From an uncultured Candidatus Saccharibacteria bacterium (GTDB lineage: Bacteria > Patescibacteriota > Minisyncoccia > Phycocordibacterales > CAZTPW01): a stretch of 64,000 bases of DNA. A program made the translations under genes and the position numbers. The stretch is taken from positions 5,656 to 69,655 of the forward strand of contig CAZTPW010000002.1 of NCBI GenBank assembly GCA_964615725.1, in the 5' to 3' direction. Of the stretch, positions 6,854 to 47,434 are shown in pieces. How positions within the stretch are numbered: position 1 is the stretch's first letter; every line of letters starts with the position of its first letter. The notes beneath the pieces are model-generated. The model made no database searches. It was given only the letters and a program-made list of their open reading frames with translations, and was not told the origin of the DNA.

Positions 6854-6899
6854 ACGAACAAAAAATGTCTCACAATTTTGTGAGACATTTTTTGTTCGT
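6854..6899. repeat. perfect 46-nt palindrome (23-bp stem, AATT centre) abutting the tRNA-Ser 3' end
   Basis: acgaacaaaaaatgtctcacaa|ttgtgagacattttttgttcgt is perfectly self-complementary. On the minus strand it begins at the encoded CCA of tRNA-Ser. It is a likely transcript-end hairpin/terminator or a protein-binding palindrome. Confidence 0.6.
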
Positions 6900-17037: not shown

Positions 17038-17062
17038 GTAGGGGGTTGATTCAATTATATTC

Positions 17063-17713
17063 ATGAAATTTCTTCATTCAAAACCACATACCCAAAAAGG
17101 CTTCACCCTCTTCGAGCTTTTGGTTTCGATTGGAATTTTCACACTCCTCACAACAACGCTTCTTGTTAAAAACTCACAGTATAAAGGGAATACCGTCATC
17201 ACCAATCTCGCATATGAAATGGCACTTATCGTCCGTCAGGCTCAAGTCTACGGAATCAATGTACGTCAAGTTGGTACGGGCAACTTCGATTATGCGTATG
17301 GTGTGCACTTCAGCTTTGATCCTGCCAACAAGGACTCAGACGGGCATGTGACCAGTTTCAAACTTTTTTCTGATAGTCACCCAACTCCTGTCGATGGTAA
17401 GTATGACCACCCCAACGAAGATGTCGAGCTTTTCAATCTCTCGCCCGGCAACTGGATCGAAAATATATGTCTCGATGTTGGTGGGGTTCCGAAGTGTGTA
17501 AAGGATGGTGATTTTACTACACTCGATGTGATGTTTAAGCGTCCAGACCCATCAGCTATCTTTTTCACATCGGGCGGTACTACCAACTTTTCTTATGCCT
17601 CAACCGCTCACGTGTACATCCTCTCAAGTAAGGGGATCTGTCGACAGATCGATATTAACAAAACTGGCCAAATTTCAGTGCCGGACGTAGACCCATCATT
17701 CACATGTTCTTAA
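17063..17713 (+). CDS. minor pilin / pseudopilin (prepilin-type N-terminal domain)
   Basis: Leader ...HTQKG|FTLFELLVSIGIFTLL. 216 aa. Confidence 0.7.
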   Translation: MKFLHSKPHTQKGFTLFELLVSIGIFTLLTTTLLVKNSQYKGNTVITNLAYEMALIVRQAQVYGINVRQVGTGNFDYAYGVHFSFDPANKDSDGHVTSFKLFSDSHPTPVDGKYDHPNEDVELFNLSPGNWIENICLDVGGVPKCVKDGDFTTLDVMFKRPDPSAIFFTSGGTTNFSYASTAHVYILSSKGICRQIDINKTGQISVPDVDPSFTCS

Positions 17714-18324
17714 ACCACTTCTCTCCAAATCAGCGATATGGTCAGAAAGGCTTCACGCTCATTGAGGTGATTGTTTCGATCTCGATTTTTATTGTCGTTA
17801 TGGTTGTTGCGGCTGGGGCAGTACTTTCGATCATTGATGCCAATCGAAAATCTCATGCTACAAAATCTGTGATCGATAGCCTCAACTTTATTCTTGAGGA
17901 TTTCGCGCGAAACGTGGTGACGGGTTCTCTTTATTCATGCAGTACAACGCCTTCGTCGGGTACTATTTCAGGTGCGTTACCTACGGATAATTGTCCAACC
18001 GGATGGACCAACAATTTCTCATTCAAGGACCAAAACGGTAAAGTGGTTGTGTATTCATATGATCCAATCAGCCACCAAATTACTGTGTCGCACGATGGAG
18101 GAGTTTACCTTCCGGTCAATTCACCGGAGGTCTACATCACCTCATTTGATATTTATGTGATGGGGGTTGGTCGTCAGTCTCCAAACCCTGAGCAGCAGCC
18201 TCGTGTATTCGTAACGATCCGTGGCTACGGGGCATTTGGTGATCCAACCAATCAGAAATACCGCACTGAGTTTAACGTTCAGACATCAATTACCCAGCGT
18301 AATATCGAACGCCTTGAACCATAA
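17704..18324 (+). CDS. minor pilin / pseudopilin (GspH/FimT-like)
   Basis: Leader ...YGQKG|FTLIEVIVSISIFIVVM. 206 aa. 10-bp overlap with the previous gene. Confidence 0.7.
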   Translation: MFLNHFSPNQRYGQKGFTLIEVIVSISIFIVVMVVAAGAVLSIIDANRKSHATKSVIDSLNFILEDFARNVVTGSLYSCSTTPSSGTISGALPTDNCPTGWTNNFSFKDQNGKVVVYSYDPISHQITVSHDGGVYLPVNSPEVYITSFDIYVMGVGRQSPNPEQQPRVFVTIRGYGAFGDPTNQKYRTEFNVQTSITQRNIERLEP

Positions 18325-18328
18325 TCCT

Positions 18329-18934
18329 ATGAAAATTTCCTTTCCAAAAATGAATACCAAAAAAGGCTTCACCCTGATTGAAACATTCATTGCGATTTCT
18401 ATTTTAATGATTGCTGTGGTTGGTCCAATCACTATTGCTCAGAGAAGTCTTTCATCTGCAAAATTTTCACGAGATCGAGTGATTGCATACTACTTGGCAC
18501 AGGATGCTGTTGAGTATATTCGAAGTATTCGAGACGACTCCTACCTTCAGGGTAAATATTGGGACGATGCTGATGGTTTCTTTTCTCGAATCTCTCAATG
18601 TCGCAGCAATTCCACTGTTGCTACCCAGTGGTGTTATCTCGATACTCAGCGCACGTATGATGAAAACAAATCTCTATTCCCGGGAGCCTCAAACCCTGCA
18701 TCATTCCCAAATCTCAACTACAATACTGTCACTGGGGTATATAATTATGACAACCTGTCGTCCGATAACCAACCAACTTCATTTACTCGATCGATAAGTA
18801 TTCGTAATGCTTCCACACAAAATGGTGAAGATGAGATTGTGATTCAGGTTGATGTGCATTGGGAGTCAGGTCTCTTTGGAAGTGGTGGGGGATCATTTAC
18901 TACATCAGAGCATCTTCTTGATTGGCAAATATAA
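18329..18934 (+). CDS. minor pilin / pseudopilin (PilV/PilW-like)
   Basis: Start trimmed to the ATG at 18329 (MKISFPKMNTKKG|FTLIETFIAISILM), which follows the upstream stop. Confidence 0.7.
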   Translation: MKISFPKMNTKKGFTLIETFIAISILMIAVVGPITIAQRSLSSAKFSRDRVIAYYLAQDAVEYIRSIRDDSYLQGKYWDDADGFFSRISQCRSNSTVATQWCYLDTQRTYDENKSLFPGASNPASFPNLNYNTVTGVYNYDNLSSDNQPTSFTRSISIRNASTQNGEDEIVIQVDVHWESGLFGSGGGSFTTSEHLLDWQI

Positions 18935-19479: not shown

Positions 19480-21519
<2,040 letters not shown>

Positions 21520-35891: not shown

Positions 35892-37592
35892 ATGTCACTC
35901 ACATCAGAAAAACCACGAGCCGGTAAGCAGAAAAATCATAAATTTATTTTCGTAATCGGCGGTGTTATGTCAGGAGTCGGAAAGGGGATCGCTACTTCAT
36001 CGATCGGTACCCTCCTTCAGGCAAAAGGCTACAGTGTTCACCTCGTAAAAGTTGACCCGTATTTAAATGTCGATGCAGGTACTATGAACCCCACTGAGCA
36101 CGGTGAGGTTTTTGTCTTAAATAGCGGACTCGAAACGGATCAGGATATGGGCAACTATGAGCGCTTCCTTGATCGCGATCTTTCAAATGACGACTACATG
36201 ACGAGCGGTATGGTCTACAAGCATGTCATCGATCGAGAGCGCAACCTTGGCTATCGTGGCAAGTGTGTGGAGGCGATTCCCCATGTGCGAGATGAGATTA
36301 TTGCACGGTTTAAGCGTTCGGCGGAGCAAAGCGGTGCTGATATCTCAGTAGTGGAGATCGGTGGTACCGTCGGTGACTATCAAAACATTATGTTCATCGA
36401 AGCGGCACGTGTACTCAAGATCTACAACCCTGACGACGTCCTTGTGGTGATGGTCAGCTACCTGCCGATTCCAAGCAAGATTGGTGAAATGAAGACCCGT
36501 CCGACGCAAAATGCCGTGCATCAGCTCGCATCCTACGGTCTCAACACTGATGTGATCATTGCTCGAAGTGAAGTACCGCTCGACATGAAGCGCAAGCAAA
36601 AAATCGCTGATGCGTGTAGTGTGCGACCCGATCACGTCATCTCTGCGCCTGATATTGATAGTGTCTATGATGTACCTATAAACTTTGAACGCGACAACCT
36701 TGGTGCAATCATCCTCTCATCACTTCATCTCAAGGAAAAGAAACTCACCAAAGACGGCCTCGCACCATGGCGAGCATTTGCTTCAAAAGTAAAAGAGGTG
36801 AAGGCGGGGCAGAAGGAGATCAATGTTGCAATTGTTGGGAAATATTTCTCGACCGGAGACTTCGTCCTCACCGATGCGTATGTGTCCGTGCTTGAGGCGC
36901 TCAAATATTCTGCCTACAAGCTCGGCGTGCGTGCCAACATTGCTACCGTAAATGCAGGGGATTTTGAAGGTGCGAAGCCTGATTTTTCAGTACTCAAAAA
37001 GTTTGATGCAATTCTCGTGCCGGGAGGCTTTGGTGAATCGGGTATCGAAGGAAAGCTTAAAGTGATCGAATATGCTCGTACTCACAAGGTGCCGTATTTT
37101 GGTCTCTGCTACGGAATGCAACTCATGGTCATTGAATACGCTCGCAATATCCTTGGCTGGAAGCATGCCAACACCGCTGAGATCAATCCAAAAGCTTCCC
37201 ATGTCGTCATCGATATCATGCCAGATCAAAAGAAGAAGCTCGCGGAGGGGAATTATGGTGGTTCGATGCGACTCGGCGCTTTTGAGGCAAAGCTCAAGCA
37301 GGGCACGGTAGCACAGCGTGCCTATGGATCGCAGAGTGTGATGGAGCGTCATCGCCATCGTTATGAGGTCAATCAAGAGCATATCGAAGCGATTGAAAAT
37401 GCTGGCCTCGTTTTCTCCGGCACATCACCCGATGGCAAGCTCATGGAAATCGCAGAGCTTCCAGAGTCCAAGCACCCATTTTTCGTCGGTACACAATTTC
37501 ATCCGGAGTTTTTGGCACGTCCTTTGCGCCCACACCCGCTTTTTTCTGCGTTCATCAAAGCTGGTATCGACAGGAAAAAGAGTCGGGGGTAG
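35892..37592 (+). CDS. pyrG: CTP synthase
   Basis: N-terminal synthetase domain (IFVIGGVMSGVGKGIATSSIG) and C-terminal class-I glutamine amidotransferase (GLCYGMQ; HPEF). 566 aa. Confidence 0.95.
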   Translation: MSLTSEKPRAGKQKNHKFIFVIGGVMSGVGKGIATSSIGTLLQAKGYSVHLVKVDPYLNVDAGTMNPTEHGEVFVLNSGLETDQDMGNYERFLDRDLSNDDYMTSGMVYKHVIDRERNLGYRGKCVEAIPHVRDEIIARFKRSAEQSGADISVVEIGGTVGDYQNIMFIEAARVLKIYNPDDVLVVMVSYLPIPSKIGEMKTRPTQNAVHQLASYGLNTDVIIARSEVPLDMKRKQKIADACSVRPDHVISAPDIDSVYDVPINFERDNLGAIILSSLHLKEKKLTKDGLAPWRAFASKVKEVKAGQKEINVAIVGKYFSTGDFVLTDAYVSVLEALKYSAYKLGVRANIATVNAGDFEGAKPDFSVLKKFDAILVPGGFGESGIEGKLKVIEYARTHKVPYFGLCYGMQLMVIEYARNILGWKHANTAEINPKASHVVIDIMPDQKKKLAEGNYGGSMRLGAFEAKLKQGTVAQRAYGSQSVMERHRHRYEVNQEHIEAIENAGLVFSGTSPDGKLMEIAELPESKHPFFVGTQFHPEFLARPLRPHPLFSAFIKAGIDRKKSRG

Positions 37593-37645: not shown

Positions 37646-38236
37646 ATGAACACAGACCTGTCTAGGATACACACGTGGTACCTGATTCGTCTGCTGTTTA
37701 TGCGGGCGAATTTTCAATACCATTCCGGCGGTATTTCAGGCAACCGTCATCCAAACAGTCTTCTCCTTGAGGGGACGTGGCTTCTCCAGTTTCCCTATGA
37801 TGGGGGACAATTTCAGAATGTTGGTGATGATGAGTTCATTGCCGAGCTTGCCACCCGCGAGCCATTTGGAGGTTACTCGACCACCATCTCAAACATGCGG
37901 CCATTATCGGAATTTGACATGGTCCAGGTCACCGCACTTATGGCCTGGGTAATGCAGGATTTCCATACCCGCCTTGAAGGATTCACTCAGGCGCGAAAGG
38001 CGATTAATGCGATCGCGGCTTTCTTTCAGAGGGGAATTCCACCCACCTCTGGACTCTACCGTCGCTTCTGGAATTCAGATTGGGCGCAGTACTACTTTCA
38101 CTCACCGGGGGTTGATAAGAGGGAACGCTCGCACGGTCAGGTGAATGCCATCGTCCTAAGCATCAAAGGTCGTCGCAGAATGATTATTGATGTGAGTGGG
38201 TGCAGCAGGCCTGCTCCTGATGATGAGGTGGTCTAG
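37646..38236 (+). CDS. hypothetical protein
   Basis: 196-aa ORF, ~52% GC. Terminator follows. Confidence 0.5.
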   Translation: MNTDLSRIHTWYLIRLLFMRANFQYHSGGISGNRHPNSLLLEGTWLLQFPYDGGQFQNVGDDEFIAELATREPFGGYSTTISNMRPLSEFDMVQVTALMAWVMQDFHTRLEGFTQARKAINAIAAFFQRGIPPTSGLYRRFWNSDWAQYYFHSPGVDKRERSHGQVNAIVLSIKGRRRMIIDVSGCSRPAPDDEVV

Positions 38237-38262
38237 AGCGTTCTTTGGGTTTGTTTGGTGCG

Positions 38263-38295
38263 AAGCCACCGTCTGCGCGGTGGCTTTTCTTTTTG
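38263..38295 (+). terminator. rho-independent terminator
   Basis: aagccaccg-tctgcg-cggtggctt followed by ttctttttg. Confidence 0.75.
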
Positions 38296-38353: not shown

Positions 38354-38424
38354 TGCCGGATCGTCTAAAGGTAGGACACCGCTCTCTGAAAGCGGTAATT
38401 TTGGTTCGATTCCAAGTCCGGCAG
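38354..38424 (+). tRNA. tRNA-Gln, anticodon CUG
   Basis: U1-A72 acceptor (TGCCGGA/TCCGGCA) typical of bacterial tRNA-Gln. D-arm GTCT-AAAGGTA-GGAC. Anticodon stem CCGCT/AGCGG with loop CTCTGAA. T-arm TTTGG-TTCGATT-CCAAG. Discriminator G. Confidence 0.8.
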
Positions 38425-38603
38425 CACGAAGCTCGTTGAAACGAGCGAGTTCGCAGGAAGCTTTATGCTTGAGCATAAAGCGGCTTGGAATCGAACGCCG
38501 GAGCGATGTCGAGCTAGTAAGCGAGACCGCGAGGCGGTGCCCAGCCCTCACTGAGCGTCGGCGAGGTGAGAGGCGAGGGCGATTCCAATTCTCACGAAAA
38601 TAT

Positions 38604-39113
38604 ATGGATACACTCTCAGAAAAAATATTAAATAGACGTATGGTTAAGCTTTTTATCAGATCATGTTTTGAATCGATGGAAATTCTTTCTAAACATCAAT
38701 CTAGTGCCAGTTACCATCTTCCTTACTATTACTTAGCACAAGCTATTCTTGAGTTGTGTCCAAAATTAATTCTTATATCAAAGTTAGAAGGTGAAGGTTT
38801 GTCTGGTGATAATATTAAAAAAGAATTAATGAAGTATGGACATGATCTTGAAAAACTCTTTTCAAATGTGGATATTAAATCAAAATATAATCAAGTTGGT
38901 GGTATAAAAGTTACTAAAGTTACCGAGGAGAATAAAAATTTTTATTACGAATTTGAGACGTTTTCCCCCAAAAAAAAGATTATGATCTATGATTCAGAAT
39001 CTCTTAAATACGGGCTTCTTTCAAACAAGGTTAATATCAGTTACGTTGGTTATCAGTTTAATGATCTTCTTGAACTCTGTAGTATGGTAAGCGATGCTTC
39101 TTTTATTAAATAA
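38604..39113 (+). CDS. hypothetical protein (AT-rich, foreign-looking)
   Basis: Start trimmed to the ATG at 38604 (MDTLSEKIL...). The ORF-track N-terminal extension from 38436 runs through the GC-rich spacer and abuts the tRNA. 169 aa, no confident domain. Confidence 0.5.
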
Positions 39114-39118
39114 TCTAC

Positions 39119-39469
39119 ATGCTTAAAGAAAACCTCTACGCAACAAGTTTCTCAAAAGTGTACCCATACTATATTGCCAAAGCAGAAAGGAAAGGTCGTA
39201 CCAAGGCAGAAGTTGACCAGATTATTTGTTGGCTCACCGGCTACACGCACAAGCAATTTGAAAAGCACTTGGAGAAGGGTACCGATTTCAAGACCTTCTA
39301 TCTCAAAGCCACAAAACCCAACCCTAAAAGGAAGCTCATTAAAGGTGTAGTCTGTGGCGTTCGCATCGAAGAAATCACCGACCGAGTGATGCGCGAAATC
39401 CGCTATCTCGACAAACTCATTGACGAACTTGCAAAAGGGAAGAAGATGGAGGCTATCCTGCGCGCGTAG
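39119..39469 (+). CDS. DUF2200 family protein
   Basis: 116 aa. The N-terminal sequence [32 protein letters not shown] matches the conserved DUF2200 core. Confidence 0.65.
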
Positions 39470-39523
39470 CCGCCTTGTATAATAGGGTTATCCGTAGCAA
39501 GATATGCTTTCAAAATCATTACT

Positions 39524-40195
39524 ATGAAAAATCGATACAACAACCTATTAAGTAAGTATAATAAGAAAATCTTAGCGCTTTGCCCCTATAACCCTTTTTT
39601 GTTTACTCTTAACGCGTTAGAGATTCAGAAGATTCATCACCCAACCATGAGAATACTTGAGGTTGGTTCTGGTGAAGGTGATTCAGCATTACCAATTCTA
39701 CAGACCACCACTGCAAAGCTCGATCTCCTCGATGTTTCAGAAGAGATGATTGCAACTTCAAAAAACACACTTCAGTCTTATAAAGAAAGGGTCAATTTTA
39801 TATGCGAAGATGCCCTTATTTATTTAAAAAAGGCAGATCCTTATGATCTGATCTATTCGGCTTGGACAATTCATAATTTTCCTCAGAAAGATAAGAAGGT
39901 TCTCCTCCAGGAAATGTATTCAAATTTAAAGTCAGGTGGCACCCTTATGATTTTGGACAAGGTGTATCAGGATAATAATCGTGAAGATTTTTTGCAGCGA
40001 CAAAATAATCGATATAAAAATTACCTCGATAAGGAACTTGCCAATGCGATTATTGAGCACGAGATCGAAGATGCTACAGATGAATATAGACTTGATGAAA
40101 CATCTTTTTCCACACTTCTCAAATCTATTGGCTTTCGAAGTGTCGATAGTATCGATCGAATTGAAAGAGATTGTTTGATACGAGCAGTCAAGTAA
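39524..40195 (+). CDS. class I SAM-dependent methyltransferase (AT-rich)
   Basis: Motif I ILEVGSGEGDSA. Motif post-I LDLLDVSEEM. 223 aa, ~33% GC. Confidence 0.7.
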   Translation: MKNRYNNLLSKYNKKILALCPYNPFLFTLNALEIQKIHHPTMRILEVGSGEGDSALPILQTTTAKLDLLDVSEEMIATSKNTLQSYKERVNFICEDALIYLKKADPYDLIYSAWTIHNFPQKDKKVLLQEMYSNLKSGGTLMILDKVYQDNNREDFLQRQNNRYKNYLDKELANAIIEHEIEDATDEYRLDETSFSTLLKSIGFRSVDSIDRIERDCLIRAVK

Positions 40196-40210
40196 CCTTA
40201 TTAAAAAACC

Positions 40211-40609
40211 ATGATCCACATACGCTACAAACTCAACATATCACCTCACCACGGAATCGGTCTCTTTGCAGATGAAGATCTCAAAGCTGGTCAACTCGTC
40301 TATACAGCAAGTCCTCTCCTTGATGTAAATATCACAGAGGAGCAATTTGCGTCACTTCACGAAAAAGAAAAGGAAGAAATTCGTTGGTGGGGTTTTAAAA
40401 TTGAAGACAAAGGAGTTTGGCATGTCGATTTTGATGTATCAAAATTCATTAATCACTCATACACACCAACACTCACGCAAAGTCCGGACCATACTGATGC
40501 ATATCTTGTTACAACACGTGAGGTGAAAAGTGGGGAAGAACTCACGCAAAATTATTTAGAATTCGAATCTCCTGAAGATTTGAAGCGTAGAGGCATACCA
40601 GTCAAGTAA
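40211..40609 (+). CDS. SET domain-containing protein (putative protein-lysine methyltransferase)
   Basis: 132 aa with SET signatures: an NHS[CY]xPN-like INHSYTPTL and a C-terminal GEELTQNY (compare GEELtfdY). Confidence 0.6.
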   Translation: MIHIRYKLNISPHHGIGLFADEDLKAGQLVYTASPLLDVNITEEQFASLHEKEKEEIRWWGFKIEDKGVWHVDFDVSKFINHSYTPTLTQSPDHTDAYLVTTREVKSGEELTQNYLEFESPEDLKRRGIPVK

Positions 40610-40645
40610 CACATCGCACCACCTCTCCCATGCTAAAATAAACCC

Positions 40646-41218
40646 ATGAAAGAAACGATTGCAATCATTGCGGCGGTTCTTGCTTTTATCGGCAATATTT
40701 CCTACCTCATTGATAGTGTGAAGGGTAGAATACAACCTCACCCGTATACATGGTTTATTTGGTCTATTGTTTCGATGACCACTTTTTTCGGTGGCTTGAT
40801 GAAGGGTGCTGGTATTGGTGCGCTTCCCACAGGCGTTGCCGAAATGTTTACCGTCATGATCTTTTTCTTTTCACTCAAAAATCTCTTCAAAAAAAGCGCT
40901 GGCCCTATCCGCAAAGTTGACCATTATTATCTCGCAGCCTGCCTCCTCGGCCTCGTGCCTTGGGTAATGACCAAAGACCCAACTGTATCAGTCGTGATCG
41001 TTGTCTTGATTGATATCGTCGCTTTCATTCCAACACTTCGCAAGACATGGGCAAACCCACACACCGAAAAGCCAACGCTCTATCAGATGAATGTTTTGCG
41101 TCACATCATGACGTTGTTCTCACTGCAAACCTACAACATTGCCACCACCATTCACTCAATTGCTATGATTTGCACAAATACTCTCATGACCTTTTTTATC
41201 AACCGAAAACGAGTATAA
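40646..41218 (+). CDS. hypothetical polytopic membrane protein
   Basis: 190 aa with ~5 hydrophobic helices. Confidence 0.5.
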   Translation: MKETIAIIAAVLAFIGNISYLIDSVKGRIQPHPYTWFIWSIVSMTTFFGGLMKGAGIGALPTGVAEMFTVMIFFFSLKNLFKKSAGPIRKVDHYYLAACLLGLVPWVMTKDPTVSVVIVVLIDIVAFIPTLRKTWANPHTEKPTLYQMNVLRHIMTLFSLQTYNIATTIHSIAMICTNTLMTFFINRKRV

Positions 41219-41227
41219 TGCTGATCT

Positions 41228-41758
41228 ATGAACTCACCACACCCAAAACAATTTCTCGTGATTATTGAAGGGCCAATGGGAGCCGGGAAGACTACGATCG
41301 GCAATTTTTTACGAAAAGACCTCAAACGCACCGCGATCCTCAGTACTGACATGATTAAGTATTTTCTCACTGATTTTGAACGAGGGGAGAGGGACAATGC
41401 AATCACAGCCGCCGTCCTTTTGAGTATGTGTCGAGAGTATGCAAGGCAGGGAATCAATATCGTACTTGCACAAGGTTTTTGGAACAAAGAATTCGTTGTG
41501 CCATACAAAAAACTCGCTGAAGAATATGGTATGAAATTTTTTGGGTATGAGCTCGAAGCACCAAAAGAATTTCTGATGGAGCGTGTAAAGAATCGACCCC
41601 GATCTGAATTTGCCAAAACACCTCTTACTGATGAAATCATCTTGCGGAACCTCAAGAACTGGGAAGATAATCGATATCACCTCGGCAAAGTTTTTGATGT
41701 TACAAAGATGAACTCTGAGGAGATTGCCAAGGTTATTCTTAAAGACCTCACATCATAA
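41228..41758 (+). CDS. P-loop NTPase/kinase (AAA_33 / chloramphenicol-phosphotransferase-like or zeta-toxin-like fold)
   Basis: Walker A IIEGPMGAGKTTIG near the N-terminus. 176 aa, the size of small-molecule/nucleotide kinases. Confidence 0.6.
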   Translation: MNSPHPKQFLVIIEGPMGAGKTTIGNFLRKDLKRTAILSTDMIKYFLTDFERGERDNAITAAVLLSMCREYARQGINIVLAQGFWNKEFVVPYKKLAEEYGMKFFGYELEAPKEFLMERVKNRPRSEFAKTPLTDEIILRNLKNWEDNRYHLGKVFDVTKMNSEEIAKVILKDLTS

Positions 41759-41760
41759 CC

Positions 41761-42132
41761 ATGAAAGCCCCGCATTCAATCCAAGACTATATCAGGCTCT
41801 ACCCGGTTGCCACTCAGAAAAAGTTGCGTGAACTTCGAGCTACGATCAAAAAGGTTGCACCGAAAAGTGTCGAATCAATCGCTTACGGTATGCCATCATT
41901 TAAACAGCATAAATATCTTGTGCATTTTGCTGCGTATAACAATCACATCGGATTCTACCCAACACCTTCCGCGATTAAGGTCTTTGCCAAAGAGCTATCA
42001 CGCTATGTAACATCAAAAGGGGCTGTGCAGTTTCCCCTCGATGAGAAGCTTCCGCTCGGGCTGATCAAGCGAATTGTGAAATATCGGGTTGGGGAGGATC
42101 TTGTGCAAGCTAAAAAACAAGAAAAACACTAG
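41761..42132 (+). CDS. DUF1801 (YdhG-like) domain protein
   Basis: 123 aa with the characteristic AYGMPSF...LVHFAAYNNHIGFYP core. Confidence 0.6.
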   Translation: MKAPHSIQDYIRLYPVATQKKLRELRATIKKVAPKSVESIAYGMPSFKQHKYLVHFAAYNNHIGFYPTPSAIKVFAKELSRYVTSKGAVQFPLDEKLPLGLIKRIVKYRVGEDLVQAKKQEKH

Positions 42133-42246
42133 GGTTTTTATATTGACAAAAATATAAAAATGTGCTAGGGTCTTTAGCAGCATGCTTACCCTCTAAGGTT
42201 TCTTGGTAGGGAGAAATAGGCATAAAACCGCACACTCAAAACCCTT

Positions 42247-43053
42247 ATGAAAAAGTTGTTTGCTGGGATCATCCTGGCTTTTCTCCTCTCGAATTCACTC
42301 ACTGCTCAGACCAACACCAACAGTCCGTTGAGTTACAACGCCGGTGTCATCTTGATGAGCAAATACTACGGGACGATTTTTGGGGGGACGTTTTACAACG
42401 GCCCCATGTCCTTCTGGGATGCCAACGCGGTGTACAAAAATCGCTTTGGTGATTTCACTGCCACAATCATGGCGGGGCAAAAGCTTGACCGCCTGAATAC
42501 CTACAACGTTGACGGCGGCACCGAGTACGATGCCGGCTTCGACCAGACCTTCACGTTCGGTGGGCCGAAATACCCAATCAAGCTCGACGTCGGCTGCTTG
42601 TATCTTTTTGTCACCGACCTCGGCAAGACTCACGACGACTTCTTTGACGAGACCATTCGCATCGACTTTCCCATTCGCGCTGATCGCAAGGATGGTCCGC
42701 TGGTCCAACCCTACTATCAGATTTTCCATTACCACTATGTGGGGGATGGACTGAAAGATGGGGGATGGATTAGCTACGCCGGACTCATCCGCGACCAGAA
42801 GCTCGGTCTCCATTTGTTTGGTAACGAGCTGAAGCTTCGCTTCGACTATCGCATGGGCATCAACCTCGGTGTCCTTGGAAGTAAACCGGGGATTGAATAC
42901 CATCGCTGGTCTTTGTCACTACCGATCACCAAGGGGAAATGGACATTCACCCCCGAGGTGCTCGCTCAGATACCGGGCGGTCGAAATCAAACTTGGGTGA
43001 CCGAGAAGAACGAAAACTTCTACGGGAACCTGAGCATTCGCTACAACTTTTGA
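42247..43053 (+). CDS. outer-membrane-protein-like beta-barrel protein (GC-rich, likely foreign)
   Basis: Signal peptide MKKLFAGIILAFLLSNSLTAQ. Alternating amphipathic beta-strand pattern. C-terminal ...LSIRYNF (aromatic-x-Phe beta-signal). ~57% GC versus ~46% background. Upstream TTGACA-N17-TAGGGT promoter-like element. Confidence 0.6.
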   Translation: MKKLFAGIILAFLLSNSLTAQTNTNSPLSYNAGVILMSKYYGTIFGGTFYNGPMSFWDANAVYKNRFGDFTATIMAGQKLDRLNTYNVDGGTEYDAGFDQTFTFGGPKYPIKLDVGCLYLFVTDLGKTHDDFFDETIRIDFPIRADRKDGPLVQPYYQIFHYHYVGDGLKDGGWISYAGLIRDQKLGLHLFGNELKLRFDYRMGINLGVLGSKPGIEYHRWSLSLPITKGKWTFTPEVLAQIPGGRNQTWVTEKNENFYGNLSIRYNF

Positions 43054-43073
43054 TAGCCCACATCTCGTGGGTT

Positions 43074-43099
43074 GCCACTCCGAAAGGGGTGGCTTTTTT
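43074..43099 (+). terminator. rho-independent terminator
   Basis: gccactcc-gaaa-ggggtggc followed by tttttt. Confidence 0.75.
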
Positions 43100-43157
43100 C
43101 ATTATCCTGTTACATTTTTGCTATACTATCTGTATAACACCTATCATCAACACAACT

Positions 43158-43832
43158 ATGAATACCAAAACTCTTTATATTGGCGGAGGAATTATTGTCT
43201 TATCGATTTTAGTTTCTTTGACACTTTTCATTAGTGCCCGAGATTTCTCAAAGCAGGGCTCGTATATTGAAGTGAAAGGTCTTTCAGAGAAAATCGTGAA
43301 AGCAGACAATGCGATTTGGTCATTAGGTTTTGAAACAAAATCAAATGATATCGACAGTCACTATGCAGATATCGATCGAAATATTAAAGCGGTCAAAGCT
43401 TTTCTCACCGAAAAAGGTTTCGATGAGTCAGAAATAAATGTCGCTCCTGTAAACATTTATCAGGACACCTACAAAGACGCAGCATTTCGATACAATTCAT
43501 CGAGCCAGATTTCGGTCTATACAAAGAAAGTTGATCTCGCCAAAACCGCATCGAATTCAACACTACTCTTGGTCAAAAAGGGCGTCGCCTTGAATCAGAA
43601 CTACATCTCATTCGAGATTTCGGATCTCAACAGTATTAAACCGGAAATGCTCGCTGAGGCTATCAAGAATGCCCGAGACACAGCATCGCAGTTTGCTTCA
43701 AGCTCGGGATCGACTGTCGGGGAAGTTGCTCGTGGCAATCAAGGGGTTTTTGAAATAACCAACAAAGATCCAGGATCACCCGAATACAAAAAGGTTCGAC
43801 TCGTTTCGACCCTCAGATTCCTTATTCAATAA
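43158..43832 (+). CDS. SIMPL (DUF541) domain protein, membrane-anchored
   Basis: Start trimmed to the ATG at 43158 (MNTKTLYIGGGIIVLSILVSL...). The periplasmic SIMPL-like domain is YIEVKGLSEKIVKADNAIWSLGFE... The ORF-track 5' extension overlaps the upstream terminator. Confidence 0.6.
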   Translation: MNTKTLYIGGGIIVLSILVSLTLFISARDFSKQGSYIEVKGLSEKIVKADNAIWSLGFETKSNDIDSHYADIDRNIKAVKAFLTEKGFDESEINVAPVNIYQDTYKDAAFRYNSSSQISVYTKKVDLAKTASNSTLLLVKKGVALNQNYISFEISDLNSIKPEMLAEAIKNARDTASQFASSSGSTVGEVARGNQGVFEITNKDPGSPEYKKVRLVSTLRFLIQ

Positions 43833-43861
43833 AGCATCAAAATATTTTTTAAAAAACAACA

Positions 43862-44275
43862 ATGGCAAAACTTAATCCATTCATTCGGTTTAATGGCGGA
43901 AAATGCGCAGAGGCGATGAACTTCTACAAAGGTATTATTGGCGGCGAGCTTTATTTCATGCCCGTCAAAGGGAGTGTAATGGAGAAAGACATGCCGGCAG
44001 ACAAGCAGGATTTGATCATGCATTCTTCTCTTACAAAAGATACTTGGACGCTTATCGGCTCTGATATGATGCGAGACACTGCAACAATCGGCGACCATAT
44101 GGGTGTGGCATACGAGGCAGAGACTGTAGAGGAAGGGCAGGGGGTGTTTGCAAAACTCTCAGAAGGTGGAGAAATCTTTATGCCCTTCGAGAAGCAGTTC
44201 TGGGGTACAATGTTTGGTCTTGTGACTGACAAGTATGGGGTAGAGTGGATGGTGACGTGTATTAAAACAATCTAA
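43862..44275 (+). CDS. VOC-family (PhnB-like) protein, paralog of 6260..6685
   Basis: LNPFIRFNGGKCAEAMNFYKGIIGGEL ... YGVEWMV; the same fold signature as the earlier gene. Confidence 0.7.
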   Translation: MAKLNPFIRFNGGKCAEAMNFYKGIIGGELYFMPVKGSVMEKDMPADKQDLIMHSSLTKDTWTLIGSDMMRDTATIGDHMGVAYEAETVEEGQGVFAKLSEGGEIFMPFEKQFWGTMFGLVTDKYGVEWMVTCIKTI

Positions 44276-44293
44276 CCTCGGTACTTTAGCTTC

Positions 44294-44854
44294 TTGAGCA
44301 TGAAGATTTCTATTGTTCGACACGGTGAAACTGACTTAAACAGAGCAAAAAGACTCATGGGGCAGCGTATAGATGAACCTTTGAATGAGGAGGGTATACG
44401 ACAGGCTGAGAGTCTTGCCCTGAATATTAATGATCACGAATTTGATCTCATCCTAACCTCTCCATTACAAAGGGCATATCAAACGGCTACAATCATCTCT
44501 CAAAAAACCCGCACACCAGTCATTAAAAAACAGGATCTCATTGAACGTGACTTCGGAAGTCTTACAGGAAAGACTTGGGAAGAAATGGATCAGCAAGTCT
44601 CCGCAGATGCAATCGACTTTAAGAAAACTGACCTCGATCAAAAATATGACTATCGTCCTTATGGTGGCGAATGTATTGACGATGTGAAGAAGAGATTCTC
44701 GAACTTCATTAAAGAAATAAAGAAGGATTACTCAGATAAGCGAGTTCTCGTAATTGCCCACGGTGGAATTATAAAAGTAGCGAATCTTGTTTTAAAAACA
44801 GAAATACTTGATCAAACCCCAGATAATATGACAGTTCATGAGTTTGAGATTTAG
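44294..44854 (+). CDS. histidine phosphatase family protein (phosphoglycerate-mutase-like)
   Basis: RHG catalytic motif at the N-terminus (ISIVRHGETDLN). 186 aa. Confidence 0.8.
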   Translation: MSMKISIVRHGETDLNRAKRLMGQRIDEPLNEEGIRQAESLALNINDHEFDLILTSPLQRAYQTATIISQKTRTPVIKKQDLIERDFGSLTGKTWEEMDQQVSADAIDFKKTDLDQKYDYRPYGGECIDDVKKRFSNFIKEIKKDYSDKRVLVIAHGGIIKVANLVLKTEILDQTPDNMTVHEFEI

Positions 44855-44877
44855 GTAACCATCATTTCAATAAAAAA

Positions 44878-44902
44878 GAGATCGAACAACATTCGATCTC
44901 TT
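44878..44902. terminator. bidirectional terminator between convergent genes
   Basis: gagatcgaa-caaca-ttcgatctc hairpin flanked by an A-run upstream and a T-rich tract downstream. Serves the plus-strand phosphatase gene and the minus-strand MFS gene. Confidence 0.7.
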
Positions 44903-44917
44903 GTGAGTTTATCAATC

Positions 44918-46093
44918 CTATTTTTTCCAAACGATCAGCGCACCTAGGATGAGTGCCGCGCCAGAGAAGATCCACGCAGTACTGATGCTTGTAGATTCCG
45001 CGAGTGCTCCACTTATGAGGAGGCCGAGCGCGCCACCGATATGTGGAGCGATGGAGCAGAACGACGATATGGTGGCGCGCTCATGCGACGGAATCCGATC
45101 GTGCAAGTAACTTGTTATAAGTGGCCCCCAACATCCTCTTCCAGCCTCATGAAGCAAAAAGAATGTCAGTGCCCACCCAAAGCTCGGAGCCAGCGCCGAA
45201 GCAATGACTGTTGCACCAACGTAGCACTGCACCGAAATGATCCATCCACGCTCTTTACCATGGCTTTTCACACGAGCAATGAAGACGTTTCCAAGAGCGA
45301 GCGCTGCCATCATAGTGACAAAGACATACCCGTAATGAACCTCCTTCACGCCATGGCTTTTGAAAAATGGTTGCCAGAACATGTTGAGTGCCATTACTGA
45401 GTAGATTTGAATTCCGCTGATGATGAGGATGAAGCGCACTGCCTTGTCATGAATTGCATAATGAATACTCGAGGTGGCAATCGCTTTCATTGCATGCCAT
45501 CCATTGTTCCAAGAGACATCTTGTTTTTTGAAGTATTCTTCTCGCATGACTGACCATGCAATACATGCGGTGGTTATCATTACAAACCCCGCAATGATCC
45601 ACGGCAGAGAAAGGCTCACTGCCATCAGGTAGGAACCCGAGACAGCACCAATTCCGCTCCCGATTTTGCAGATCAATGCATTTTTGGCGAAGATCGGTTT
45701 GAGATCTCCGTCGTGACCGTGGTGTTTCATACTGTCTACGAACCAAGCCTGGAAGGCTCCACTCATAAACGTACAGCCAATCCCGCCAATTACTTCAGCG
45801 AGGATGAAGCCATAGAAACTCGATGAGAGTCCATAGACAAACATACTCACCGCCAGGATCGCACACGAGATCACGAAGGACTTCTTCCTTCCGAATAGGT
45901 CTGCGAAAGCTCCTGTTGGTATTTCACAGACGAAGAGGGTAAGGAAGAAAGTGGCATTGACCACGTTGATCTGAAAGAGGTTGAGGCCGCTTTTCATGAG
46001 GTAGGTGGAGTAGATTGCCGCGATGAGGTCCATACCTGCCGCACTGAAGAGGAAGGAAAGGAGCATATACTGACGAACGATTCGTTTCTGCAT
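44918..46093 (-). CDS. MFS transporter
   Basis: 391 aa, ~12 TM helices. MFS signature around GRKKSFVISCAILAVS. Confidence 0.8.
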   Translation of the reverse strand: MQKRIVRQYMLLSFLFSAAGMDLIAAIYSTYLMKSGLNLFQINVVNATFFLTLFVCEIPTGAFADLFGRKKSFVISCAILAVSMFVYGLSSSFYGFILAEVIGGIGCTFMSGAFQAWFVDSMKHHGHDGDLKPIFAKNALICKIGSGIGAVSGSYLMAVSLSLPWIIAGFVMITTACIAWSVMREEYFKKQDVSWNNGWHAMKAIATSSIHYAIHDKAVRFILIISGIQIYSVMALNMFWQPFFKSHGVKEVHYGYVFVTMMAALALGNVFIARVKSHGKERGWIISVQCYVGATVIASALAPSFGWALTFFLLHEAGRGCWGPLITSYLHDRIPSHERATISSFCSIAPHIGGALGLLISGALAESTSISTAWIFSGAALILGALIVWKK

Positions 46094-46150
46094 AGGAGTA
46101 GTATTGATTTGTTAAGGAACTATTTCCCTGGACGAGGGAATGAGGAAAAG

Positions 46151-46375
46151 AAAAATCCCGACTTTCGTCCAGTCGGGATTTTTCTTCAAAGAATAGATGA
46201 TAGGAAATTAACCCTTCATAGAACAAGAACAATCACGACTAGGCGCAAGATACGCACATGGTGTATACGCAGAAAGAGATCCCTGAACGATAGTTCGGGC
46301 CTTTTTCCAGATATGCGTGATGTTCTTTGTGTTGTTCACGTGTAAAATAATAGCTTATTTGAGCCATTCTGTCAA
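46151..46375 (-). promoter_or_regulatory. long 5' leader of the MFS gene: strong sigma70 promoter plus intrinsic terminator (attenuator/riboswitch candidate)
   Basis: On the minus strand: TTGACA (complement of 46370-46375), a 17-nt spacer and TATTAT (46347-46352). About 150 nt downstream lies AAAAATCCCGACT-GGACGAAAG-TCGGGATTTTTCTTTT (46151-46186), a perfect intrinsic terminator ~60 nt before the MFS ATG. A second hairpin is at 46292-46320. Tiny ORFs MCVSCA* and MKG* lie in the leader. Confidence 0.5.
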
Positions 46376-46454
46376 TACTTTCCCATTTTAATCCGCTTTG
46401 CTACCATAGTGGGGTCTTATCAATAACGGGGCAATGCCCATAATTTTTTAAAAC

Positions 46455-46709
46455 ATGCCAAAAGCAAATTCCGCATTCATGAAACCAATGACCATCAGCG
46501 CTGATCTCGCTCCTGTCGTAGGAAAGGGTCCAATGCCTCGATCAGAAGTCGTAAAGGCTCTCTGGGTCTATATCAAGAAGAACAATCTCCAGGATCCAAA
46601 GAACAAGCGAAACATCAATGCTGATGCTACCTTGAAGAAGGTTTTCGGCGGAAAGGCTACTGTTACTATGTTTGAAATGACAAAGCTCGTTTCAAAACAC
46701 CTCTCATAA
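46455..46709 (+). CDS. SWIB/MDM2 domain protein
   Basis: 84 aa. RSEVVKALWVYIKKNNLQDPKNKRNINADATLKKVFG matches the SWIB core. Confidence 0.7.
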   Translation: MPKANSAFMKPMTISADLAPVVGKGPMPRSEVVKALWVYIKKNNLQDPKNKRNINADATLKKVFGGKATVTMFEMTKLVSKHLS

Positions 46710-46732
46710 GGAATCGCCAACCCTGGAAGACA

Positions 46733-46764
46733 AAAACGCCCATAAGAGGGCGTTTTTGTTTTGT
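46733..46764 (+). terminator. rho-independent terminator
   Basis: aaaacgccc-ataagag-ggcgtttt followed by tgttttg. Confidence 0.8.
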
Positions 46765-46807
46765 GTTATCCACGCCACAAAATACTCAGGTTTGGTATAC
46801 TAGCACC

Positions 46808-47434
46808 ATGAATCATCCATTGAAAAAAGCACTTGTAGTCCTTCTCGTCATTGTGGTAGGGCTGGTATTTTATTCATTTATAGCAAAATACACCGCGCTT
46901 CAGCTTCCTGATTTCTCATTCCAAAAATCTGAAACAGAGATTATTGAAATGATGGGGAATCGTGCCGTAAAAGCTCTCAAAAATCGAGATTCAAAGACGC
47001 TCGCTCTCATGATGCATCCTCAAGTACACCTTCGATTCTCACCCTTCCCATCATTCAGTGCAGATTCCATCTCATTTTCACAAGACGAAGTCCAGAAGCT
47101 TTTTGCTGACAACCACAAGTATCTCTGGGGCTACACCGACGGCAAGGGCGATCCGATTCTTATGACGCCTCAGGAATATTACACCTCATATCTCTATGCC
47201 GTTGATTTTTCAAACGCACCTCAGAAATATTTCGCCCAACCCCAAACCTCTCGTGGCAACAATGTAAATACCATCCTCCAAACATTCCCCGGAGCGCGTG
47301 TGGCAGAATTCTATTTCCCTGGATTCAATCCAGAATATGAAGGTATGGATTGGAAGAGTCTTCTCATCATCTTTGCTCCGTCGGGCGGTAAATGGTTCCT
47401 CGTCGGTATTGCCAACAATCAGTGGGGGATTTAA
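46808..47434 (+). CDS. hypothetical membrane-anchored protein
   Basis: Start at the ATG at 46808 (MNHPLKKALVVLLVIVVGLVFY...). ~208 aa. Confidence 0.5.
   Translation: MNHPLKKALVVLLVIVVGLVFYSFIAKYTALQLPDFSFQKSETEIIEMMGNRAVKALKNRDSKTLALMMHPQVHLRFSPFPSFSADSISFSQDEVQKLFADNHKYLWGYTDGKGDPILMTPQEYYTSYLYAVDFSNAPQKYFAQPQTSRGNNVNTILQTFPGARVAEFYFPGFNPEYEGMDWKSLLIIFAPSGGKWFLVGIANNQWGI

Follow-up and report, generated by a model that had tools for sequence, protein, structure and literature searches.

The DNA directly downstream of a tRNA-Gln gene in an uncultured Patescibacteria (Paceibacteria) bacterium is probably a composite located at a tRNA recombination hot spot, and not one island. Within the 64-kb stretch that was analysed, termed the window, the composite would consist of a decayed copy of a small structured element, termed the Y-core, an AT-rich gene for a 169 aa protein (orf169), an AT-rich methyltransferase gene (MTase) and a resident DUF2200 gene. 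Y-cores have a common architecture, recur at five tRNA species, covary in their base-paired positions, are found in tandem and in some copies enclose cargo genes. No Rfam family covers the Y-core, no description of it was found in Rfam or in the literature searched, and the family looks new. Its repeats and tandem copies suggest that it is mobile.

The tRNA-Gln gene (anticodon CTG; positions 38354–38425, + strand) was identified by ARAGORN and by the Rfam tRNA model (58.2 bits). It serves as both the anchor and the target of the structures described here, and a promoter-like site ends at 38354. Three genes follow on the same strand: orf169 (38604–39113; GC 0.294, GC3 0.235), the DUF2200 gene (39119–39469; PF09966, E = 7e-49; GC 0.456) and MTase, encoding a class I SAM-dependent methyltransferase (39524–40195; GC 0.362). 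The NCBI start for orf169 is at 38640, which gives a protein of 157 aa. GC content of the window is 0.455 and the mean of its 70 open reading frames is 0.452 (sd 0.041); orf169 (z = −3.9) and MTase (z = −2.2) are the most AT-rich genes among them. The sharp contrast proposed in the original prediction is thus borne out, with DUF2200 lying in between, but the figure of 31–33% GC given there is slightly off, the values being 29.4% for orf169 and 36.2% for MTase. Low GC is uncommon among the window genes; besides these two, only one open reading frame has a GC content below 0.37 (784–1365), and it likewise adjoins a tRNA gene. In tetranucleotide usage the tRNA-Gln block is also the strongest outlier of the window: the most deviant 1.5-kb segment of the 64 kb is 38751–40250 (z = 4.56) and the second is 38501–40000 (z = 3.8). 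Both AT-rich genes were probably acquired by horizontal transfer, although the low GC of both families wherever they are found could be an intrinsic property instead.

The spacer between tRNA-Gln and orf169 (38426–38603) is GC-rich as had been stated (56.7%), and is 178 nt long, not 170. Its folding energy is −79.3 kcal/mol (z = −4.9 relative to shuffled sequence). Two tRNA-trailer hairpins (38427–38453 and 38460–38481, + strand) come first, neither with a T-run behind it, and hairpins matching this pair sit ahead of the core in other Y-core copies. The Y-shaped core of a tRNA-targeting mini-element follows at 38484–38591, beginning 59 nt past the tRNA and on the same strand. It comprises a closing helix, two arms (A and B) and a degenerate repeat, and scores 93.3 bits with the covariance model R1, of which this copy was itself a seed sequence. 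The three-way junction is present in the minimum-free-energy fold of the copy.

The 5′ strand of the closing helix (38484–38496, + strand) is an inverted copy of the tRNA-Gln T-loop and the 3′ strand of the T-stem. The match is 13/13, between GTTCGATTCCAAG at 38404–38416 and CTTGGAATCGAAC at 38484–38496. Four matches to this 13-mer with at most one mismatch are present in the window, vs 0.11 expected by chance; the other two are tRNA-Ile and its duplicated 3′ half. The inverted 13-nt copy had been noticed previously and is exact, but its interpretation as the relic of an island does not stand, as it instead looks like a functional component of a distinct structured mini-element that recurs elsewhere. 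The conserved sequence GCCGGAG comes next. Arm A (38496–38536, + strand) has the basal helix CGCC:GGCG, a conserved internal loop GGAG/CGA and a variable hairpin. Arm B (38539–38580, + strand) has the basal helix GCCC:GGGC and the apical loop UGAGCGUCGGCGAG; the loop motif GAGCGNCGGCGAR is found again in a second copy of the window, at tRNA-Ser, and in locus L065 (GAGCGACGGCGAA), and locus L072 has the variant GAGCGACTGGAA. The 3′ strand of the closing helix (38580–38591, + strand) is a degenerate direct repeat of the tRNA-Gln 3′ end (CGATTCCAAtTC vs CGATTCCAAGTC). It matches the tRNA T-loop/stem at 11 of 12 nt, and identity is gone after 12 nt. The shortness of this repeat is read as decay, and a degenerate att-like repeat fits an old event. 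The direct copy, which ends 12 nt ahead of the orf169 ATG, had escaped the original prediction.

Neither a T-run terminator nor a promoter-like site is present between tRNA-Gln and orf169, and read-through from the tRNA promoter is therefore possible; the orf169 block may be expressed in this way. Other identities for the spacer were considered and rejected. Its minus strand is not a decayed tRNA or tmRNA, since ARAGORN and Rfam searches are negative and the T-stem is unpaired. A group I intron or other ribozyme finds no Rfam match (E ≤ 1 for the window region; E ≤ 0.1 for three loci). For a group I intron the core is also too small, with two arms only and ∼85 nt, and the upstream tRNA is already complete. 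Introns of Patescibacteria tRNAs have been placed at anticodon loop position 35/36, which is not the site of the Y-core (PMC13011429).

The Y-shaped element is ∼100–190 nt long, and most copies measure 100–240 nt. A search with R1 of 1.29 Mb of DNA from related Paceibacteria yielded 28 copies; 23 have E < 1e-3, and two belong to the window. Sixteen of the 28 are located 27–84 nt past a tRNA gene on the same strand. Two more are second copies in tandem, and another two lie behind an intron-containing tRNA-Asp missed by ARAGORN. In these last two loci, L054 and L075, the core is at the usual distance behind that tRNA, and LAGLIDADG genes first taken as cargo are actually upstream of it. By inspection, the same order is also found at ten more tRNAs in nine related genomes. 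This order is tRNA, one or more hairpins, an inverted T-arm copy, a GCCGGAG-type core and a direct repeat of the tRNA 3′ end. The family motif that follows the inverted T-loop/T-stem copy is GAAM-GNC-GGAG, represented by GCCGGAG at tRNA-Gln. The family was delimited with a closing direct repeat of 15–25 nt or more of the tRNA 3′ end; across the family such repeats extend from 8 to about 85 nt. In copies at tRNA-Gln, -Asp, -Met, -Thr and -Ser, the inverted segment matches in each case the tRNA of its own locus. Among 177 tRNA genes, 15 have both an inverted copy (at least 9 nt) and a direct copy (at least 10 nt) within 450 nt downstream, and the upstream control gave 0.

The same three-way junction fold is found in all Y-core instances. 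Compensatory changes are seen in 17 of 19 modelled pairs over the 28 copies, in an alignment fitted to the model. In Y-cores 88% of cells are paired, vs 63% in shuffled and 20–40% in slid controls. Across 27 distinct copies pairing of the arm A basal helix is complete (100%), and CG, AU, GC, GU and UA are all represented at one position. Counts of wobble pairs (25 G-T vs 18 A-C) single out neither a strand nor a type of molecule, RNA or DNA.

Tandem Y-cores are present in L059, L077, L055 and L043, and the copies at L043 3054–3187 and L065 9764–9901 are young. Cargo-bearing copies that close with a core and repeat are found in L018 (4.1 kb) and at tRNA-Gln (5 kb) and tRNA-Asp (1.6 kb) of L043, and in all repeat-bounded relatives the cargo sits between the tRNA and the core. 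None of these three copies carries an integrase. The cargo has no systematic GC deviation, and a general AT-richness distal to Y-cores was rejected (mean difference −0.018 vs a background sd of 0.036). No mobilising enzyme for Y-cores was identified. The 80 related loci have one Xer-like gene, in L038, and no core is next to it. A Y1_Tnp gene is located 0.8 kb past the Y-core in L019, i.e. near one of 28 copies; a Y1 HUH transposase was rejected as a regular partner, with L019 the only case, a distant relative in L071 and none in the window. A phage attP origin was also considered. Viral contigs scanned for GAACGCCGGAG...GAGGCGG gave 94 matches vs about 90 by chance, with a median GC of 0.62, and a closing helix in one, from a 66% GC contig; with numbers near chance and a single closing helix, none is convincing as an attP.

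Two other tRNA flanks of the window are relevant. A second Y-core (6716–6842, − strand; R1 44.3 bits, E = 1.4e-8), whose repeat is likewise degenerate, starts 57 nt past tRNA-Ser(GCT) (6899–6988, − strand). It lies behind a 20-bp terminator hairpin, a strong bidirectional terminator that parts the tRNA from the core. At tRNA-Ile(TAT) (1464–1538, − strand), the 3′ 43 nt of the tRNA are repeated directly at 1384–1426 on the − strand with 2 mismatches over 43 nt. This repeat starts in the anticodon loop and lies 38 nt past the tRNA; no Y-core is present at it, and the AT-rich gene at 784–1365 (36.4% GC) is directly behind it.

The AlphaFold model of orf169 (pLDDT 89.6) displays the four-helix up-down bundle of the HEPN fold. 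The KYGHDLEKL segment remarked on previously is present, and its histidine (H80) is invariant, together with E50 and K54, in an alignment of 20 family members. A canonical Rx4–6H motif is absent from these 20; a basic residue is found at −3/−4 but is not invariant, and the pattern around H80 is mostly [RK]-x3-H. One of the 20 members matches HEPN_RiboL-PSP (E = 0.0049), and the window protein does not. Searches with orf169 gave no significant Pfam, PADLOC or Foldseek match, and nothing below E = 0.05 in a PDB profile search; weak sequence matches of the orf169 profile to PDE10A, an HD-domain protein (E = 0.05), are not significant and were rejected. Relatives are rare, only about 20–30 among 1.8 billion representatives and at most 47% identical. 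Their neighbours include an MmeI restriction-modification gene together with Fic, RhuM, a SocA/Panacea gene and toxin-antitoxin genes. In six of six loci, including contig L001 of the same genome, members have a higher AT content than the DNA on either side. An AT-rich open reading frame in an orf169-like position in L019 is unrelated (hhalign probability 0.2%). The fold and neighbourhood suggest that orf169 most likely has a defence- or toxin-type function, RNA-targeting or nucleotide-binding. It is a candidate new defence/toxin protein of a small HEPN-like family that lacks the canonical catalytic motif. With the wider HEPN superfamily (MNT-HEPN toxins, AbiV, Csm6/Csx1, sacsin) it shares an invariant His at the start of a helix, and its homologues adjoin restriction, Fic, RhuM and antitoxin-type genes. 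It differs in having no Rx4–6H, in its invariant E50, K54 and H80, in a four-strand beta insertion at residues 101–129, and in having no adjacent MNT or antitoxin partner.

MTase contains a Rossmann-type SAM-binding domain, as do other class I SAM methyltransferases (Methyltransf_25, 3.4e-16; Methyltransf_31, 2.2e-13; others). Domain models of the UbiE/COQ5-like and Methyltransf_25/31/11 types match it at E = 1e-11 to 3e-16. It falls under every NCBIfam equivalog cut-off, however, and its family is uniformly about 223 aa and AT-rich. Relatives form about 40 clusters in Paceibacterota, with 43–57% identity and lengths of 222–229 aa, and the family is Paceibacteria-specific. Its genes exceed the flanking DNA in AT content in four of four loci, two of which carry the same protein (P0042), and a tRNA gene is found within 1.2 kb upstream in the three loci with enough sequence. 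MTase is probably a second, independent accessory acquisition. DUF2200, with native GC (45.6%), probably stands outside the AT-rich acquisition and had settled earlier beside tRNA-Gln; in L053 it is the first gene behind tRNA-Gln, at a distance of 84 nt.

The composite reading may be set out as follows. The spacer would be an old, decayed copy of the small, non-autonomous Y-core element, whose members in Paceibacteria are located immediately 3′ of tRNA genes. A replacement tRNA 3′ end within each Y-core keeps the tRNA intact, and the element ends in a three-way junction of ∼100 nt. The closing helix of this junction forms by pairing of the inverted T-loop/T-stem copy with the displaced original tRNA 3′ end, i.e. 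the direct repeat. The recombination substrate may be a folded single strand, possibly of DNA, as with integron attC sites, CTX-phage attP and IS200/IS605 ends. The target-matching segment would direct the Y-core to its tRNA, and the enzyme would be supplied in trans. The gene orf169, 12 nt past the decayed repeat, would be a horizontally acquired accessory gene of a rare, defence-associated family. MTase comes from a larger Paceibacteria family, AT-rich wherever present and with a tendency towards near-tRNA sites.

Are the three genes one island? The original prediction had proposed an old island that had lost its integrase. One old integrase-type island in the tRNA-Gln 3′ end would comprise orf169, DUF2200, MTase and perhaps more; its integrase and distal att site would have decayed, leaving the spacer as an attachment remnant. 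The block does adjoin a tRNA, its composition is anomalous, and the tRNA 3′ end recurs nearby as a degenerate direct copy. tRNA-Gln is, moreover, a recombination hot spot in the lineage, with direct repeats of its 3′ end that bound true 4–5 kb inserts in L018 and L043. These parts of the earlier proposal stand, but the unity of the three genes does not. No distal att repeat better than those in shuffled sequence was found in 38600–47000 on either strand. A mismatch scan, motif search, nhmmer and covariance model revealed no second core or repeat beyond the AT-rich genes. These genes are on the distal side of the repeat pair and outside it, beyond the core, whereas in repeat-bounded relatives the cargo lies between tRNA and core. 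The absence of an integrase, not even a fragment of which is seen, agrees with what had been reported: no Pfam integrase match was obtained on 18 flanking proteins, and tblastn with Xer-type catalytic boxes, which did find the positive control L038, detected no Xer-like box in the 64 kb. In addition, the GC content of DUF2200, the central gene of the block, is native, and in L053 this gene is a direct neighbour of tRNA-Gln. The spacer contains the recurrent mini-element in full, and at other loci this element stands alone. The gene pyrG precedes tRNA-Gln(CTG) in 46 of 80 related loci, and a 47th has tRNA-Gln(TTG). The block is syntenic in none of the 80, so that it is not a conserved arrangement in the related loci, but these relatives are distant (62–73% pyrG identity, no flanking synteny) and its absence from them is weak evidence. 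Collections contain no close strain, all window proteins checked being singletons at 90% identity, and insertion of orf169 or MTase is thus not shown by an empty site; an identical 2.5-kb contig is contained in SRR11567528, an example of the source sample. DUF2200 was rejected as an anchor for closer relatives in metagenomes, as the 80 metagenome loci retrieved are 59–73% identical and have no tRNAs or other window genes. That orf169, DUF2200 and MTase form one island cannot be shown, and this reading is considered quite improbable.

Two further explanations dispense with either transfer or a new type of element. In one, orf169 and MTase are native genes whose AT-richness is intrinsic (for example, low expression, fast evolution or proteins rich in Lys, Ile and Asn), and the spacer is a resident structured RNA, such as a tRNA-trailer sRNA or processing signal. 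That AT-richness marks both gene families in all genomes examined, that MTase relatives of uniform length (222–229 aa) are spread widely through Paceibacterota, that no promoter or terminator separates the tRNA from orf169, and that covariation indicates selected pairing, as for an RNA, would all fit. Nevertheless, this explanation is decidedly unlikely, in view of the extreme sparsity of orf169 relatives and their unrelated defence-type neighbourhoods, the lack of synteny of either family with tRNA-Gln in relatives, and the strong bidirectional terminator that separates tRNA-Ser from its core. Tandem Y-cores, matching segments and duplicated 3′ ends at five tRNA species, and cargo are the behaviour of inserted DNA. 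The other explanation holds that Y-cores are att-flanked deletion remnants of conventional integrase elements, similar to CIMEs, with incidental hairpins, for example terminators or protein-binding palindromes of attP arms. Repeats that run from the T-loop to the tRNA 3′ end or beyond are the classical tyrosine-integrase pattern, a size of 130–240 nt is close to that of a complete attP, and tandem arrays are what integration typically leaves when it recurs at a regenerated tRNA. Set against this are the lack of an integrase in cargo-bearing copies or the window, and the single Xer-like gene in 80 loci, which does not adjoin a core. An inverted, tRNA-specific target copy ∼90 nt from the crossover is also foreign to known attP arms. 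Lastly, the 17 of 19 covarying pairs include the arm helices, which points to selection on single-strand folding. The deletion-remnant explanation is possible but rather doubtful.

Y-cores, as part of the composite favoured here, share features with several known systems. They resemble tRNA islands of tyrosine integrases in their position at the tRNA 3′ end, in keeping the tRNA intact with an element-borne 3′ end, in a direct repeat that starts from the T-loop (the anticodon loop at tRNA-Ile), in tandem accumulation, and in AT-rich accessory or defence cargo nearby. Unlike these islands, Y-cores have no integrase, are mostly 100–240 nt in length and have a covarying three-way junction with an inverted target copy; moreover, the AT-rich genes of the window are outside the repeat pair. 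Similar to CIMEs and MITE-like elements, Y-cores are small, non-coding, flanked by target repeats, presumably mobilised in trans, and can be found in tandem with larger relatives. They differ in that tRNA 3′ ends of variable length serve as repeats in place of a fixed target-site duplication, in that the target itself is copied by the inverted repeat, and in that no autonomous parent was found.

Folded single-strand sites offer a further parallel. As with integron attC, CTX attP(+), which is used by host XerCD, and the ends of IS200/IS605 elements and their PATE/REPIN derivatives, which are used by Y1 HUH transposases, two inverted segments ∼90 nt apart pair to rebuild a target-like duplex, structure is conserved over sequence and the enzyme comes from outside the element. 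IS200/IS605 elements also have a short internal guide that pairs with the target and cleavage site. The target of the Y-core is instead a tRNA T-loop/T-stem, its guide-like segment is 10–13 nt vs 4–5, and it has a duplicated target end, whereas IS200/IS605 elements make none. In addition, Y-cores differ from the folded single-strand sites in having no regular IntI, Xer or Y1 partner, with one Y1_Tnp per 28 copies, and their single-stranded state is inferred.

Perhaps Y-cores represent a new class of nucleic-acid-guided mobile elements, with a folded module of ∼100 nt, an exchangeable guide of 10–13 nt that is complementary to the T-loop/T-stem of the target tRNA gene and steers insertion, and an enzyme acting in trans; at present this appears unlikely. 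To move from one tRNA species to another, such elements would need no more than a joint swap of the guide and the tRNA 3′ end that they carry. The trans-acting enzyme might be an IS200-like Y1 HUH transposase, as in L019, or another protein, and tRNA tails would serve as landing pads that gather AT-rich defence genes.

AT-rich accessory genes beside a tRNA are routine genome biology, and the interest of this locus is in the spacer element. Y-cores are recurrent, structured and integrase-less, and are found at the T-loops of at least five tRNA species in Paceibacteria. What is annotated in Patescibacteria assemblies as a tRNA fragment or a ‘pseudo-tRNA’ may frequently be a Y-core. If the matching segment does specify the target, Y-cores would amount to a compact insertion system that can be reprogrammed naturally, in bacteria whose genomes are tiny and whose mobile elements are poorly understood. 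Such a system would also account for the hot spots of variable genes at tRNA flanks in these genomes.

On the + strand, pyrG, encoding CTP synthase (35892-37592), is followed by an open reading frame of 196 amino acids (37646-38236), a strong terminator (38262-38287) and tRNA-Gln(CTG) (38354-38425), where a promoter-like site ends exactly at the tRNA. A spacer of 178 nt with 56.7% GC separates the tRNA from orf169 (38604-39113). A DUF2200 gene (39119-39469) and a class I SAM methyltransferase gene (39524-40195) come next on the same strand and, directly 3' of the methyltransferase, a gene for a 132-aa SET-domain protein (40211-40609; PF00856, E = 3.7e-12). Beyond it on this strand lie genes for a membrane protein, an AAA_33 kinase and DUF1801, and further small accessory genes. 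The 196-aa reading frame has a GC content of 0.516, a bias opposite to that of the AT-rich genes; neither Pfam nor NCBIfam has a match for it, and 80 related pyrG loci contain no relative. In one of these loci, L037, a homologue of the SET-domain protein (67% identical) is found 4.4 kb after tRNA-Gln.

The window belongs to an uncultured patescibacterium of the Paceibacteria group. Its CTP synthase reaches no more than 73% identity with any counterpart in species-representative genomes; most of the best-matching records carry the label uncultured Candidatus Saccharibacteria or uncultured bacterium, and others are MAGs of Taylorbacteria, Kaiserbacteria and Paceibacterota. Every window protein that was checked is a singleton in a set of about 15 billion proteins at the 90% identity level. 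Linkage of pyrG to tRNA-Gln within 10 kb is seen in 47 of the 80 related Paceibacteria loci (46 with anticodon CTG, one with TTG), with spacings of about 0.1 to several kb and flanking genes that are conserved on neither side. The original prediction proposed to compare tRNA-Gln loci of related genomes for presence or absence of the block. None of the genes downstream of the window tRNA-Gln is syntenic in the linked loci (80 compared), but the gene upstream of pyrG is unconserved too, and the relatives are therefore too distant for an empty-site proof of insertion.

Everything described in that prediction, which saw the AT-rich block as an old or decayed island of horizontal origin, is present on re-check of the locus. 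Window GC is 0.455 and the mean of 70 ORFs 0.452 (sd 0.041); orf169 stands at 0.294 (GC3 0.235), the methyltransferase gene at 0.362 and the DUF2200 gene between them at 0.456. In tetranucleotide usage, the most deviant of all 1.5-kb segments is 38751-40250 (z = 4.56), followed by 38501-40000 (z = 3.8). The 13-nt inverted T-arm copy is exact (38404-38416 versus 38484-38496; chance expectation 0.11). The prediction had overlooked a direct copy of the T-loop/T-stem (38580-38591, 11/12 nt), which lies just 5' of the orf169 ATG.

Just one further ORF in the window falls below 0.37 GC, and it is likewise tRNA-adjacent. This 193-aa reading frame (784-1365, - strand; GC 0.364; no Pfam or NCBIfam match) lies directly after a repeat of tRNA-Ile(TAT), the tRNA (1464-1538) and repeat together spanning 1384-1538 on the - strand. 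The repeat copies the 3' 43 nt of the tRNA with two mismatches in 43, starts in the anticodon loop and lies 38 nt beyond the tRNA end. The site is the window's second case of a tRNA with an AT-rich gene, of an anticodon-loop repeat type without the folded element described below. A tRNA-Ile with anticodon TAT is uncommon in bacteria and would decode AUA without lysidine modification.

The spacer behind tRNA-Gln folds into two trailer hairpins and a closed three-way junction (-79.3 kcal/mol; z = -4.9 versus shuffles). The inverted 13-mer pairs with the direct copy as the closing helix, with two arms inside. BLAST of the spacer against the 80 pyrG loci gives short colinear matches after tRNA-Gln (L065) and after tRNA-Asp (L072, L059). 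At L065, a SAM riboswitch (RF00162, 53.5 bits; 8090-8194, - strand) is located 1.4 kb upstream of the tRNA-Gln locus. A systematic search for copies of tRNA segments in related loci reveals a recurrent architecture, that of the Y-core element. Behind the tRNA come one or two hairpins, then an inverted segment copied from the T-loop and T-stem 3' strand of that tRNA, a conserved GAAM-GNC-GGAG junction, the arms A and B and, last, the tRNA 3' end repeated in direct orientation. This closing repeat measures 15-25 nt; at L065 it extends ~62 nt into the trailer and at L043 ~85 nt. All ten instances examined, from four tRNA species, share the junction fold. Inverted and direct copies both occur within 450 nt downstream of 15 of 177 tRNAs; the upstream control gives 0.

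A covariance model, R1, with seven copies as its seed, detects 28 in 1.29 Mb (23 of them with E<1e-3), among which is the window spacer. Of the 28, sixteen are found 27-84 nt behind a tRNA on the same strand, two form the second member of a tandem, another two come after a tRNA-Asp with an intron, missed by ARAGORN, and four close inserts of 1.2-5 kb. Paired cells make up 88% of the alignment versus 63% in shuffles and 20-40% in slid controls. In this alignment, which is fitted to the covariance model, compensatory changes occur at 17 of 19 pairs; arm A has a basal helix that is paired without exception and shows five pair types. The Y-core has no matching Rfam family and no description in the literature searched. 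A second window copy (6716-6842, - strand; 44.3 bits with R1) lies 57 nt after tRNA-Ser(GCT) (6899-6988), behind a 20-bp bidirectional terminator hairpin, and is followed by a VOC/YjdN-like gene with normal GC.

Tandem arrays behind one tRNA are found at L059 4838-5210 (after tRNA-Asp, two different subfamilies), L077 1054-1339 (two identical copies), L055 1547-1800 and L043 2921-6054 (after tRNA-Asp, three copies with 1.2-1.6 kb of cargo between). The tRNA-Asp intron, of ~250 nt in the anticodon loop (L075 2680-2985; L054 4735-5030), is at a site that matches the one reported for group I introns of Patescibacteria, position 35/36 (PMC13011429). Each of these two tRNAs has a stand-alone 224-aa ORF carrying two motifs of LAGLIDADG type before it and a Y-core behind it.

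Y-core repeats start in the T-loop and reach or pass the tRNA 3' end, the upstream tRNA is always complete, copies stack in tandem, and some enclose cargo between tRNA and Y-core (4.1 kb at L018; 5 kb and 1.6 kb at L043). This is the topology expected of a circular element that would carry a copy of the tRNA 3' end and recombine within the T-loop. A plainer reading, that Y-cores are att-flanked deletion remnants of ordinary integrative elements, seems the less likely one, as no cargo-bearing copy encodes an integrase and the 64-kb window has no Xer-like gene, in agreement with the original prediction. For the circular element, the enzyme would act in trans. Besides the missing integrase, the inverted target copy is unusual: it lies ~90 nt from the crossover, differs from one tRNA species to the next and is base-paired to the repeat. 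The folded single strand may rebuild a duplex that mimics the tRNA target. Integron attC and CTX-phage attP are precedents for such folding, and the short guide of IS200/IS605 ends offers an alternative precedent for the role of the inverted segment. Wobble counts point to neither strand as the folding one, so both RNA and DNA are possible.

A Y1 transposase is near a Y-core in one of the 28 cases: at L019, an IS200-like gene (17812-18489; PF01797, E = 5.6e-18) lies 0.8 kb beyond a decayed tRNA-Gln Y-core, and 22 aa of its C-terminus recur as a fragment 1.2 kb beyond the gene (19631-19696). At L043, a gene for a 116-aa GIY-YIG nuclease (16993-17408, - strand) is flanked by tRNA-Gln on one side and, on the other, by a direct copy, ~85 nt long, of the tRNA 3' end and trailer. 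This insertion has no Y-core and looks like a homing-endonuclease-type event at the same tRNA-Gln site.

Relatives of orf169 are few, about 20-30 in 1.8 billion representative proteins and none above 47% identity; L44, E50, K54 and H80 are invariant. The AlphaFold model from the family alignment is confident (pLDDT 89.6). Foldseek with this model gives nothing significant, sequence models give no match, and the canonical Rx4-6H is replaced by a looser [RK]-x3-H; the protein is accordingly termed HEPN-like rather than a HEPN member. Some homologues adjoin an MmeI-type restriction-modification gene together with a Fic gene, a RhuM gene, or a SocA/Panacea gene; others lie among housekeeping genes. 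The family gene is more AT-rich than its surroundings in six of six loci. The methyltransferase family comprises about 40 clusters, mostly of 222-225 aa at 43-57% identity and from Paceibacterota where named; its gene is AT-rich relative to flanks in four of four loci, two of which carry the same protein (P0042). In the three loci with enough sequence, from other Paceibacteria genomes, a tRNA lies within 1.2 kb upstream (L264, tRNA-Trp; L266, tRNA-Gln(TTG); L268, tRNA-Ala), and no tRNA repeats or Y-cores are detected there. The DUF2200 gene has native composition, and at L053 a DUF2200 gene follows tRNA-Gln by 84 nt.

Horizontal acquisition is plausible for orf169 and for the methyltransferase gene, but a single three-gene island is not supported. 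The AT-rich genes sit distal to the repeat at 38580-38591, the chromosomal side by the element's topology, and up to 47 kb neither a further core nor another repeat lies behind them; they cannot, therefore, be shown to be Y-core cargo. This repeat matches at 11/12 nt and diverges beyond, and that of the tRNA-Ser copy is degenerate as well; from these sequences, the window Y-core is judged to be old and the tRNA-Ser copy likewise decayed. Behind the decayed Y-core of L019 lies an AT-rich ORF of another, unrelated kind (GC 0.32 versus 0.45), so that DNA of foreign appearance has entered the site just beyond the element on at least two independent occasions. The locus is best read as a composite: a decayed tRNA-targeting mini-element, a HEPN-like gene that was acquired, a DUF2200 gene of older residence and a methyltransferase gene acquired separately. 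Taken by itself, the gene block is an accessory islet of an ordinary kind beside a tRNA. The Y-core family seems to represent a new variant among tRNA-integrating elements, and surveying whole genomes for it and looking for its enzyme would be worthwhile.
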